NCBI GenBank assembly: GCA_965205975.1
Contig: OZ242195.1
Span: 1,472,001 to 1,536,000, forward strand
Source of the DNA: Candidatus Latescibacterota bacterium
Lineage (GTDB): Bacteria; Latescibacterota; UBA2968
Direction: 5' to 3'
Length of the DNA stretch: 64,000 nucleotides
Positions 59,065 through 63,617 of the stretch are shown piece by piece (position 1 is the first letter of the stretch; the number at the start of each line of letters is the position of its first letter). The translations under genes and the position numbers were made by a program. Under the pieces are notes generated by a model. That model made no database searches. It saw only the letters and a program-made list of their open reading frames with translations, and was not told the DNA's origin.

Positions 59065-59574
59065 TTAAAGAAGTCCGCTAATATTCTGAACAGGTGAAAA
59101 GTATCCTGCATCAACCATAGCTTGAAGAACATCATCAGCCTCTTGAGGTGTTAGTATCTCATCACGGCAACACACCTTGAGAATACCAATTGTTCCCGTA
59201 AATTGCACATTACGTTCTATACAACAGTCTCTTGCAGCCTTGTCATCTGTAGCGACAATTCCACCGCGGCTTTGTACACAGGCAATACAGGAAGCTTCGC
59301 CGGGTGACAAGATTCGCAATAAGTCACGAAATACTACTCTTTCTCTACCTTTCAAAATATCCGCTTGAGCAAATACACCTGTCCTGACTGCATCTTCTAT
59401 TTCTCGCAATGCATGATATCCTTCCGTAATACCATCGGTAATTTCATCCAAAACAGGAGATGTGATCTGAATCTGGGAACCATAACGCACGACCAACAAA
59501 TCCAAATGGTTTGTCAGTGCAAAATTGCATAATGTCACTGTATCAAAATAATACTGAGGCATATCTTCAGGCAT
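59065..59574 (-). CDS. PIN-domain protein (DUF3368-like), putative toxin
   Basis: YYFDTVTLCNF, LSPGEASCIA, VATDDKAAR, GTIGIL. Confidence 0.85.
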   Translation of the reverse strand: MPEDMPQYYFDTVTLCNFALTNHLDLLVVRYGSQIQITSPVLDEITDGITEGYHALREIEDAVRTGVFAQADILKGRERVVFRDLLRILSPGEASCIACVQSRGGIVATDDKAARDCCIERNVQFTGTIGILKVCCRDEILTPQEADDVLQAMVDAGYFSPVQNISGLL

Positions 59575-59881
59575 TGGCTGTATCCTCATCGGCATACGCA
59601 CTGTTCTGATCAATTCCATGTTCTATGAGCCACTGTCTCAACTGTAAAATGTGCATTCCCATTACACGCGCCAGTTTACCGAGACTGATAAATCCACCTT
59701 GATAAGCTACAAGCGCCTGGCTTTGATGCAGAGGCAGATCGGCAAATGAAATTTGGTAACATGCCAAAAGTGCCTCGCGCACGAGTTGATCTTTGCTTTT
59801 ACGCCGCGATTTTGCCAATAGCTGGAGTCTTTCATCCATCTCTCTGTCGAGTTTTACATGCAACGTCGTTCCCTGTGCCAT
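59567..59881 (-). CDS. RHH + UPF0175-like antitoxin
   Basis: TLHVKLD..RLQLLAK..SKDQLVREAL, AYQGGFISLGKLARVMG. Overlaps the PIN gene. Confidence 0.82.
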   Translation of the reverse strand: MAQGTTLHVKLDREMDERLQLLAKSRRKSKDQLVREALLACYQISFADLPLHQSQALVAYQGGFISLGKLARVMGMHILQLRQWLIEHGIDQNSAYADEDTANA

Positions 59882-60178: not shown

Positions 60179-61468
60179 TTATTTTATCTCATCCAAACGC
60201 GCGCGAAACCCAGGCAAAAGAGCCGTTACCAGTGCAGTTGTAACCAGGGCGACACTGGTGTGTAAGCCGAGGGCGATAGGCGCGCCATAGACTTCGGTAA
60301 GTTTGCCGATTTGCAGGCTACCAAGTGGTCCCGCGCCAATGGCGAGGACGAGAGTACCCATTGCGCGGTCTCTCATATCATCGCGGGCAGCGATAAGCAT
60401 AATCGAGCTTTGCATCACACTGAAAAACGCGTGGCCCAGGCCGGCGAGTATGAGGAGAAAGATGGCGAGCGGAAAGGCAACCGGCGTGCCGAACAGGGTG
60501 AGCGCACCAACCCAGGACGTGCTAAAGGCAAAAACAAACAGTGCGAGGGACTGAAAAATCGATCCAATGGAAAATATCCAGCCGCGGCTGAGGCGCGATC
60601 GCAACACGCTGACCGCGTAAAGGCCGAAAAATGCACCAATACCATTGCACGCGCCCAATATGCCGAATTCGAGCGGACCTTTGTGGAGAATATCGTGTGT
60701 AAAAATGGGCAGTATGGTCTGGTAGGGAAACGCCAAAAAATTCATGATCACAGTAATGAGCAACGTCCCCATAATCGGTTGGCTGGTGCGTATGTATTGC
60801 AAGCCTTCGCGCATCAGCGTCCACGGAGAGGTTTTGAGAATCGCGGGATGACGCGGTACTTTGACGCGCAGCATGATCAGGAATGAGATAAGGGAAATAA
60901 AAAAAATAGCGATATAACAGTCCTGTACGCCAAATAGAGCGTAAATATATCCACTTAAAAAAGGACCGATCACGCGAGCGATATTCTGGGTAAAGCTTTC
61001 GAGCATCATCGCTTCAACCGTGCGCTGCTTGCCGACCAGATCGGGTACCAGAGCACGGCGAGCAGTCCAGTTGAGAGACCACGAGAGGCCAAATAGCACT
61101 GCGGCGATCGCAAGATGCCAGAACGCCAGGCGATTGGTCCAGATCAGCAGGCCAATGGTTGCGAGGACCAGTACGCTGAGCCACTGCGAGAGAATTACGA
61201 TGCGAACGCGCCCAACGCTATTGATCACCGGCCCGGCGATAAAACCGACGAGCAACAGGGGAATAGATCGGTAAAAGCCAATCAGTCCGACGGCAAACGC
61301 AGAGTGGGTAATCTCAAAAACGAGCCATCCCACGACAATCATTTCCATCCACATGGCCTGCCACCAGAGCATATTGCTCAGGATCAGGTAGCGAAAACCG
61401 CGGTTACCCAGGGGAGCAAGGGATCCTCGAAAGGAGATGACAAATTTTCCCGTTCTTCTAATGCGCAT
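60179..61468 (-). CDS. MFS transporter
   Basis: About 12 TM segments, ARRALVPDLVG, ARVIGP, DMRDRAMG. Confidence 0.9.
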   Translation of the reverse strand: MRIRRTGKFVISFRGSLAPLGNRGFRYLILSNMLWWQAMWMEMIVVGWLVFEITHSAFAVGLIGFYRSIPLLLVGFIAGPVINSVGRVRIVILSQWLSVLVLATIGLLIWTNRLAFWHLAIAAVLFGLSWSLNWTARRALVPDLVGKQRTVEAMMLESFTQNIARVIGPFLSGYIYALFGVQDCYIAIFFISLISFLIMLRVKVPRHPAILKTSPWTLMREGLQYIRTSQPIMGTLLITVIMNFLAFPYQTILPIFTHDILHKGPLEFGILGACNGIGAFFGLYAVSVLRSRLSRGWIFSIGSIFQSLALFVFAFSTSWVGALTLFGTPVAFPLAIFLLILAGLGHAFFSVMQSSIMLIAARDDMRDRAMGTLVLAIGAGPLGSLQIGKLTEVYGAPIALGLHTSVALVTTALVTALLPGFRARLDEIK

Positions 61469-61544
61469 GGTCGAGTTTCAAACCCCAAATAATCCAACCC
61501 TCAAAGCGCGAAGGATATCATCTATCGCGATAGCCTCTACTCTT

Positions 61545-62117
61545 TTACCGCCCAATTTCGAAATCGCGCGCCACCGCCCGTGCCATCGCCACGAGAACAT
61601 CGTTGCCGATGCGCTCGCGATAATTGGGATTAATATATTGAAATTGGATCTTGCGATTGGGTGCAATCACAAAGAGCGATGGTACGGGCAAAGAGCGTTT
61701 TCTGTTATTCATAAACGCAACGCCATAAGCCTTTGCTGCCTCAAATTCCACATCCGATAACAGTGAAAAATCGAGCCCCACGCGATCGCGCACCTCAGCC
61801 AACTTTTCAGGCGGATCGGGTGCAATAGCAATAATTTCAAAACCCACCCCATCCAACTGTGACTTCAGTTCTTGCAGTTGTCCCAACTGCCGCCGGCAAT
61901 GCGGTCACCAGTATCCGCGATAAAAAATCAAAATCGTCGGTTTTTTGTGCGCGCCCAGATCAAAATCCCGTCCATTCGCATCGACGAGTGTCAGCGCGGG
62001 AACTTCATCGCCAACCATCAGGGGACGCACTTTATTGGGCGCATCGGGCAATTGCGCGTGCCCCCATCCCAAAGTACCAAACACCACCAGCAACGCGATC
62101 CAGATTATTTTCTTCAT
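61545..62117 (-). CDS. Exported AhpC/TSA (peroxiredoxin-like) selenoprotein, UxxC motif, 190 aa
   Basis: ORFs 61905-62117 and 61545-61886 are in the same frame and join as FYRGYW-TGA-PHCRRQLGQL. The TGA is at the first Cys of the family motif FYRGxWCPxC. Signal peptide present. Confidence 0.88.
61874..61890 (-). promoter_or_regulatory. Candidate bacterial SECIS hairpin
   Basis: GCAGUUG-GGA-CAACUGC, a perfect 7-bp stem starting 14 nt after the in-frame UGA, with a G-containing apical loop. Confidence 0.65.
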
Positions 62118-62147
62118 AAAAATCTCCTCTGTATTAAATAACGAACA

Positions 62148-63617
62148 TTACAATGAGAGAATCTTCCCGATCTTCCCCGGCTGTGCCCAGTTGCATTTCC
62201 CCTCTCCATTGAGTTGTCTCAACAAAGCGGGAATACCCGGATGTTGAAGCGCAGAACAAATTCGCCTAGCATCAGCCTCATCCCAACAAGGGATAAACGC
62301 CTGCATCGCTTGATTCGCCTGCCACACCTCTCCTTCCACACTGTTTAAGATGATGGGATGGAAGTCGCTCTTACCATAAGCCTCCCAGATAACCTTGTAG
62401 GGCGCAAAAGAATACGGACCAACGCCGAGCAACGACCACCAGACGCCTTTGGCAATAGCAGATCGGATCAAGGTACCTCTCCGACCTTCCAGTTTGTCTC
62501 TAACCTCAATGAGATATTGTCTGAGTTCGGCATATTGCTCAATGGTCGCCCACGAAAGCGGTCGTCCTGTATTTCTATTGTATGGAAGCAGAACCCATTT
62601 ATGTGGAGCCACGTCTCCATTCTTCCAGATCTCCTTTGTCGCAAGCGGAAAGAGAAATTCCCTGGGTAGATGCGTTGGTTTATCCTCGAACATGAAAATC
62701 GCATTTGCCCCGCAAGTATTCACACCCTGGCGCGGTTTCTGATCAGAAGATAGTTCGACTTTGATGGAGTCAAGATCAGTAGTATCCCCGCGCTGAAGAA
62801 CGCGCCACTGATCATCAGAGACCTTTAGAGGAACCGCACGGTGTTCAATCCACTCCCCTCCCCGCTCTCTGAAATACCTGACGGGGAATTTATGCGGCAC
62901 ATCCAGGCGAAACCTGGCGCAGCAATAAGATGTACCCACCCCTTCAAACACCTCTGTCGCAGTAAATTCACAGACTTCATCTACCTCAAATCTCCGACCA
63001 TTGGCAACATAGTCTCTGAACCCTTTGTGGGCATCACCACCTGAAAAAAGAGAAAGTGGGAGAAAGAAACACCCTATCCCATTCCCGCGCAGCAATTTGC
63101 CCAGCACGACCTTCAATACCAGAGCCGCTATATCGGTGCGCGAGGAACCGAGAAGAACCTGTTTCTTATCCGGAACCAGACCTTCTGCTACAAAATAAGG
63201 TTTGAGTCTATCCTTATATAAATTGGGCAAATCCGTGAAATTTGCCCACGGCGGATTGCCAAACAGGATATCGTACTCAGTATTCGGGGGATCTGTAATC
63301 ACATCTAAAGCGAGAAGCTGAGACGAAGGAAAATCAATCGCGAATTCCTGACGCGCTTTGCGCTGGAACACATGGAGATGTGACGCATGCATTTCGATCA
63401 AAGTCAGCCGCGAAAGAAGCTCTGGGGACACCCGAAAACCTCTCGATCTGGCGAGACGGAACAGCGCGAGCGCGAAAGCCCCCTGTCCCGCAGTCGGGTC
63501 ACAAACAGACGCCCCATCAATCCATGCATCGAAAATACCCCATCGGTCGATAAGCCATTCTGCCCATTTAATCGGAGTAAAAACCTGTCCCACCTCAACA
63601 CTCTGGAAATCGTCCAT
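62148..63617 (-). CDS. N6-adenine DNA methyltransferase (gamma class), orphan
   Basis: Motif X GQVFTP, motif I DPTAGQGAF, motif IV GNPPW, C-terminal TRD-like region. Confidence 0.85.
   Translation of the reverse strand: MDDFQSVEVGQVFTPIKWAEWLIDRWGIFDAWIDGASVCDPTAGQGAFALALFRLARSRGFRVSPELLSRLTLIEMHASHLHVFQRKARQEFAIDFPSSQLLALDVITDPPNTEYDILFGNPPWANFTDLPNLYKDRLKPYFVAEGLVPDKKQVLLGSSRTDIAALVLKVVLGKLLRGNGIGCFFLPLSLFSGGDAHKGFRDYVANGRRFEVDEVCEFTATEVFEGVGTSYCCARFRLDVPHKFPVRYFRERGGEWIEHRAVPLKVSDDQWRVLQRGDTTDLDSIKVELSSDQKPRQGVNTCGANAIFMFEDKPTHLPREFLFPLATKEIWKNGDVAPHKWVLLPYNRNTGRPLSWATIEQYAELRQYLIEVRDKLEGRRGTLIRSAIAKGVWWSLLGVGPYSFAPYKVIWEAYGKSDFHPIILNSVEGEVWQANQAMQAFIPCWDEADARRICSALQHPGIPALLRQLNGEGKCNWAQPGKIGKILSL

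Follow-up and report, generated by a model that had tools for sequence, protein, structure and literature searches.

Within the window, that is the whole stretch of 64,000 nucleotides analysed here, a 190-codon frame on the minus strand (61545..62117) contains one in-frame stop before its final TAA, which raises the question of whether this TGA ends a gene or is decoded as selenocysteine (Sec) and, in the latter case, what the protein does. By translating the frame, we obtained MKKIIW...FYRGYW ahead of the TGA (61905..61907, codon 71) and PHCRRQL...FEIGR behind it, which confirms the two in-frame ORFs, split by a TGA at the first Cys of a FYRGxWCPxC motif, of the initial annotation and adds the strand, which it had not given. 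Read with Sec at codon 71, the frame would encode a 190-aa AhpC/TSA (PF00578) Prx-like protein with a UxxC site, U-P-H-C, in which Cys74 (61896..61898; Cys in 109/111 homologues) is the sole Cys and the predicted resolving partner of Sec71. A ribosome-binding-site-like GAGGAG (62124..62129, minus strand) lies 6 nt ahead of the ATG, and the genus orthologues likewise have an AGGAG/GGAGG-like run ahead of their start codons; a scan of positions 61300-62400 for promoters and terminators found none.

The initial annotation had considered that close relatives might all carry TGC or TGT at this codon; instead, they carry TGA. First, an orthologue was found in 18 of the 20 same-genus genomes (76-95% identity), always with TGA at codon 71, the two exceptions yielding a paralogue only (G011) or no match (G018). 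Second, 44 of 168 genomes of the phylum match at E <= 1e-22, 43 of them with a TGA inside; this TGA sits at the aligned codon in 42 of the 44, G052 having TGC there and the G127 match, at a contig edge, being unplaced. Third, even in relatives with about 37-39% protein identity the TGA occupies the same codon. More distant comparison shows the Cys/TGA pairing that had been proposed as a check, as Cys occupies the TGA column in 108 of 111 homologues; it does so as well in 63 of 80 genome loci, where the 63:16 Cys:TGA ratio is biased by a scan pattern that carried Cys at that place and is not usable as a frequency. On both sides of the TGA the pN/pS ratio is 0.215 (pooled pairwise, 19 genus sequences), and both halves are under purifying selection. 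Moreover, since no letters other than TGA occur at 61905-61907 in any of the four sequencing runs, the TGA is not an assembly error; two of these runs are RNA libraries labelled sponge metagenome, whose data are contigs of relatives that cover the TGA but show no strand, level or transcription, and one of the four runs may itself be the source of this DNA. A deviating orthologue was seen in G081 (L293, together with L232): its frame stops 35 codons past the TGA and its stem carries a mismatch, so that it is possibly decaying, or misassembled.

Sec machinery, the search for which had also been proposed, is complete in the window's genome (one contig, 98% complete): selA (582 bits), selB (388 bits), selD (371 bits) and a tRNA-Sec with a TCA anticodon (70 bits) all score above their cut-offs, and selD carries its own in-frame TGA. 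Among frames of at least 300 aa in the same genome, more end in TGA (1253 of 3036) than in any other stop codon, which therefore argues for site-specific recoding and not for an altered code. Across the phylum, 41 of the 43 genomes with a TGA also gave a selA hit, the exceptions being the drafts G013 and G082, and the Cys-bearing G052 gave none; this co-occurrence constitutes a weak test as 131 of the 168 genomes are selA-positive anyway. In three genomes of genus g21 (G102, G103 and G104), the orthologue lies about 6-7 kb from selA.

The stem of a hairpin, GCAGTTG-GGA-CAACTGC (61874..61890, minus strand), begins 14 nt past the TGA, exactly as first described. Bacterial SECIS elements are defined in PMC13188914 by a loop of 3-9 nt, a stem of 4-16 bp, a G in the first two loop positions and a loop 16-37 nt from the UGA. 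With its GGA loop 21 nt from the UGA and its 7-bp stem, our hairpin has this geometry, and the loop G is invariant in 42 of 42 aligned phylum rows. Its stability is unremarkable: the isolated hairpin reaches -7.4 kcal/mol against a published limit of -7.5, which may refer to a different stretch, and the 58 nt from the UGA reach -15.2. When four stretches that begin with the TGA or shortly ahead of it were folded, their z-scores (-0.62, -0.57, +0.56 and -1.05) were not significant. About 3% of 5000 random genomic TGA triplets attain -7.5 kcal/mol, and 3.3% of 3000 synonymous recodings equal the -7.4 of the gene. Stability by itself was thus dropped as a proof, being not significant against shuffles; taken alone the hairpin is weak evidence, and the case rests on the comparison with relatives.

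That comparison gave three results. First, pS in the 19 genus sequences has its minimum, over all 8-codon windows, at codons +3 to +10, the hairpin itself (0.029, against a median of 0.26). Second, the hairpin shows compensatory changes: in the 42-row alignment (31 distinct rows), 94% of 217 stem cells are paired, 15 cells have changed on both sides, and covariation scores 0.241. None of 500 shuffles reached the pairing, two-sided-change or covariation values and slid controls were at most 45% paired, while two other measures were unexceptional (53 and 409 of 500 shuffles); the encoded protein constrains the same columns as well, and the rows, coming from related sequences, are not independent. 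Third, a bSECIS-like filter, requiring a hairpin of -5 kcal/mol or better, passed 38 of 39 distinct Sec forms from the phylum and, among the matches listed, 89 of 110 metagenome Sec forms, where recoding controls predict 14% and 18%, respectively. It passed only 2 of 63 Cys forms, for which the control predicts 3.5%; this Cys set has a lower GC content (41% vs 53-58%), a difference only partly offset by the recoding control. Taken together with the conservation of the TGA, these sequence comparisons make it very likely that the product of the gene is a redox protein containing selenium, for which export is predicted. With SelB binding the hairpin, Sec-tRNA would be brought to the UGA, and the full 190-aa chain is almost certainly made in this way.

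Export is suggested by the N-terminus, in which residues 1-21 (62055..62117, minus strand) form a predicted cleavable signal peptide. A basic start is followed by a hydrophobic core, in which the mean hydropathy over 9 residues rises to 3.38, and by a final G-H-A|Q of the kind usual at cleavage sites, a pattern that, by hydropathy and by eye, is the same in the 19 genus sequences; a hydrophobic N-terminal segment is also present in 40 of 42 Sec forms of the phylum. The signal peptide of the initial annotation is hence supported, at the level of sequence, by a conserved n-region, core and cleavage-site pattern. With high probability, this peptide would route the protein through the general secretion translocon and be cut after Ala21.

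The protein matches PF00578 with 92.7 bits (cut-off 26) and reaches no NCBIfam family cut-off: ResA (44.7 against 170), TlpA (31 against 230), DsbE (16 against 123), the SelL-related NF040769 (44.2 against 120) and the WAxxUGC family NF041054 (28.9 against 300) all fall below. A Prx-like family in which UxxC replaces TxxU is described in PMC1088965, and Prx-like 1 is tabulated with 225 sequences in PMC2398784. In the 2008 Dataset S1 of the latter, FYRG occurs 49 times and WUPHC 10 times; its Prx-like 1 entries include FYRGHWUPYCRRQL and FFRGFWUPHCRKQL, some with signal-like N-termini. Table 1 of PMC13188914, a 2026 catalogue of 119 families, lists Prx-like as predicted with high confidence and not experimentally verified (representative WP_010940744.1). 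Six Prx-like selenoproteins are reported from a worm-symbiont metagenome (PMC1976440), and SaoB and SaoC are exported bacterial selenoproteins already in print (bioRxiv 10.1101/2022.07.06.499078). Judged by its domain and motif, our gene thus belongs to the catalogued Prx-like UxxC family and is a new member, not a new family, because both this family and exported selenoproteins are already on record. Hence, the reading of a hidden exported Sec redoxin is supported while its novelty is modest, also since signal-like N-termini are the norm in Cys relatives (103/111). The gene may already be in BSepDB, whose species table includes Latescibacterota (PMC13326102). A literature search, which covered few subscription papers, found neither a Latescibacterota or sponge-symbiont selenoproteome nor a paper joining Prx-like UxxC proteins with export. 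The motif FYRGxW-TGA-PxC occurs in at least 120 metagenome stretches, a number that illustrates breadth only as the pattern scan demanded the TGA; among the matches listed, the frame continues for at least 90 residues in 67 of the 71 that are closed at the 3' end, and a hydrophobic segment is present at the N-terminus in 30 of the 84 that are closed at the 5' end.

In protein databases, the gene is found as fragments only, as had been predicted: 37 of 53 search matches are C-terminal pieces of 107 or 113 aa, with no intact close relative among the matches, and residues 1-70 are matched by a 91-aa piece that has its own record. A gene conserved across a bacterial class is thereby stored as pieces without their active site, which calls for annotation repair.

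Comparing the Sec71 protein with known systems, we found that it shares with the Prx-like 1 selenoproteins the PF00578 domain, the UxxC site and the FYRG..WUPxC motif. With the Cys proteins of PRX_like2 (cd02970), such as signal-peptide or lipoprotein forms of Bacteroidota, it shares FYRGxWCPxC, LPVP, P[DN]Y..R and the hydrophobic N-terminus; these differ, however, by having Cys in place of Sec and mostly lacking the hairpin, and most of them carry a loop of 20-30 residues between the positions of F135 and L143, against 8 in the Sec71 protein. By fold it resembles PrxQ/BCP, AhpE and the Sec-containing Prx (PxxxTxxU), but it lacks PxxxT/SxxC and the catalytic Arg, and its Sec stands at the Thr/Ser and not at the peroxidatic position. 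TlpA, ResA and DsbE have an N-terminal export signal, such as is predicted for the Sec71 protein, a CxxC-type site and the aligned proline, and the genome contains a DsbD; yet the scores are far under the cut-offs and the scaffold is closer to PrxQ. A sequence search for a solved structure of the subfamily found none.

According to the structure model (mean pLDDT 95), the Sec71 protein is a PrxQ scaffold without the peroxiredoxin triad: in the alignment, the Pro of the peroxiredoxin site corresponds to R67, the Ser/Thr to U71 and the Arg to P146, with C74 at the peroxidatic Cys. Pro146 of LPVP (61680..61682, minus strand), Pro in 109/111 homologues, together with U71/C74 matches the proline and the CxxC of ResA, and it may play the cis-Pro role. 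The roles of an N-terminal nucleophile, of the cis-proline and of DsbD are well established. A full-length, three-domain DsbD is present in the genome, and neither DsbB nor VKOR was found in this 98%-complete sequence. Because the triad is replaced, U71, C74 and P146 are arranged as in ResA, DsbD is present and DsbB and VKOR were not found, we favour a reductive cycle of the thioredoxin type. The Sec71 selenolate at the helix start would attack a substrate disulfide or sulfenic acid, Cys74 would resolve the mixed bond to give a selenenyl-sulfide, and the three-domain DsbD, linked to the protein by its presence in the genome alone, would re-reduce it, supplying electrons for envelope protein reduction. 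On balance, the protein thus probably works like thioredoxin or TlpA, as a DsbD-fed envelope dithiol reductase, and not as a classical peroxiredoxin. PRX_like proteins are described in PMC3514251 as having CxxC without the rest of the triad, and its authors infer that they are not disulfide oxidoreductases.

An exported selenoprotein could also remove peroxides, with the Sec71 selenolate reducing H2O2 or alkyl hydroperoxides as in GPx on the PrxQ scaffold and Cys74 acting as the resolving residue. Several observations point this way: all 50 structural matches listed are of peroxiredoxin/BCP type and not TlpA/ResA, with Bcp4 (3hjp) at the top (Z 24.9, rmsd 1.4, 154 residues aligned), the best NCBIfam match is the Bcp thiol peroxidase PRK09437 (58 bits against a cut-off of 140), and Sec reacts fast with peroxides. 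Nevertheless, we consider this function unlikely, as the Pro, Thr/Ser and Arg of the peroxiredoxin active site are replaced, the majority of homologues are the plain CxxC Cys form, and the genome has a separate TxxU peroxiredoxin. Still less probable is a role in disulfide formation or shuffling, as a DsbA- or DsbC-like dithiol oxidase or isomerase of the envelope. Its main hint is the P-H dipeptide, which is of DsbA type (title of 3c71) and is found in 36 of 42 Sec forms of the phylum; Cys homologues, however, mostly have PY or PF, so that PH is not a family trait. The oxidase or isomerase reading is further weakened by the lack of a detectable DsbB or VKOR for re-oxidation, by separate DSBA-family genes in the genome, and by the fact that Sec usually lowers redox potential. 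Finally, that the TGA is a true stop, giving a pseudogene or two small proteins, or is part of a genome-wide reassignment of UGA to Trp or Gly, is highly improbable: gene callers do annotate two pieces and the G081 orthologue looks broken, but this reading is contradicted by the hairpin covariation, by the equal selection on both sides of a TGA held in place so far across the phylum, by a downstream piece that would have no nucleophile and whose TTG start follows no ribosome-binding-site-like run and, as regards reassignment, by the stop usage given above and by a set of 48 tRNAs in which the sole TCA-anticodon one is tRNA-Sec. The Sec71 protein is a small soluble candidate for testing the function of the uncharacterised Prx-like UxxC proteins and a possible part of Sec in envelope redox control.

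To place the Sec forms of the phylum, we used an unrooted FastTree tree of 88 subsampled rows (17 Sec and 2 Cys forms of the phylum, 34 metagenome Sec forms and 35 other Cys forms), with no clade test. The phylum Sec forms lie inside groups of Cys forms (supports 95 and 97), with one Cys protein among them and apart from all sampled metagenome Sec forms, in which the Latescibacterota lineage differs from Prx-like 1. This suggests a separate Cys-to-Sec switch in this lineage; it only suggests an independent origin because Sec forms are missing from protein databases and the tree is subsampled and unrooted. Going further, and tentatively, one class of Latescibacterota may have independently turned an exported Cys redoxin into a Sec protein, drawing its SECIS from the codons of the R-Q-L-x-Q-L-Q helix, and may run a DsbD-fed, selenium-based envelope redox network made of this protein, a WAxxUGC protein and three or more further UxxC redoxins with signal peptides, all encoded in the same genome; we see somewhat more room for doubt than for confidence in this whole picture. 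If true, the gene would belong to a large selenoproteome, mis-annotated and with uncatalogued families among its members.

Other genes on contig C1 of this genome (G000) also carry in-frame TGA codons, and 7 of the 24 PF00578 matches in the genome contain one. Signal-like N-termini and GY[NG]-TGA-xTC motifs mark three redoxin-domain genes near 3284848 (minus), 3282575 (minus) and 3042841 (plus). Further probable selenoproteins are a TxxU peroxiredoxin (TGA at 4716278, minus), an FdhA-like UHxP protein (4963142, plus), a WAxxUGC protein encoded immediately ahead of selD and tRNA-Sec (3427023, minus), a paralogue of the Sec71 gene with UxxS and no signal peptide (392864, plus) and a GHPLGCT-U-NNG thioredoxin-like protein (1107669, plus). 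A genome-wide scan for read-through TGAs by coding score was rejected as a count of the selenoproteome, its 227 candidates being mostly ordinary stops and selD being missed.

By itself, the Prx-like gene leaves knowledge of Sec decoding unchanged, and the larger yield lies in conserved TGA-for-Cys genes of two other families, both outside the window, which may be worth more than it. The first is a 440-aa M20/amidohydrolase (110137-111456, plus; L061:538-1860; TIGR01891 at 197 bits against a cut-off of 154) with an in-frame TGA in GHG-TGA-GHN, where the metal-site motif H-x-C-G-H-N has its Cys. Past this TGA, at a distance of 32 nt, lies a hairpin whose loop is AGGT. Matches occur in 73 of 168 phylum genomes, the codon position having been checked in 12 loci; among the 76 matches listed, a single TGA is found in each of the best 55 (71-100% identity) and no TGA in the remaining 21, and the best TGA-free match is in G154, a genome with no selA hit. 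The second is a 92-aa DUF5069 protein (4618199-4618474, minus; L062:397-675; PF16798 at 61 bits) with the motif YVYP-TGA-PAD and, 19 nt past the TGA, a hairpin whose loop is TGGA. Matches occur in 120 of the 168 phylum genomes, and among the matches listed 104 of 121 contain a TGA somewhere in the frame and 17 do not. Neither family appears in the 119-family table of PMC13188914; the literature search found no paper on the M20 case, and DUF5069 is named in none of the papers listed. From these sequence data, both the M20 protein and, as a second case, the DUF5069 protein are candidate uncatalogued selenoprotein families.

Around the Sec71 gene, a genus-conserved neighbourhood is made of a methyltransferase-like gene, the selenoprotein gene, an MFS transporter and often a heparinase-like gene. 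In the window, a weak Eco57I-methylase-like gene lies upstream (62148-63617, minus) and the MFS transporter downstream (60179-61468, minus), both kept in the 16 genus loci examined, and in these loci the neighbours suggest no redox partner or evident functional link. Further along the window (59065-59881, minus), a ribbon-helix-helix/UPF0175 gene overlaps a 184-aa gene with no Pfam hit, which appears PIN-like, and the two likely form a toxin-antitoxin pair. The 184-aa gene is at the same place in 4 of 16 related loci, the rest having other inserts or nothing.
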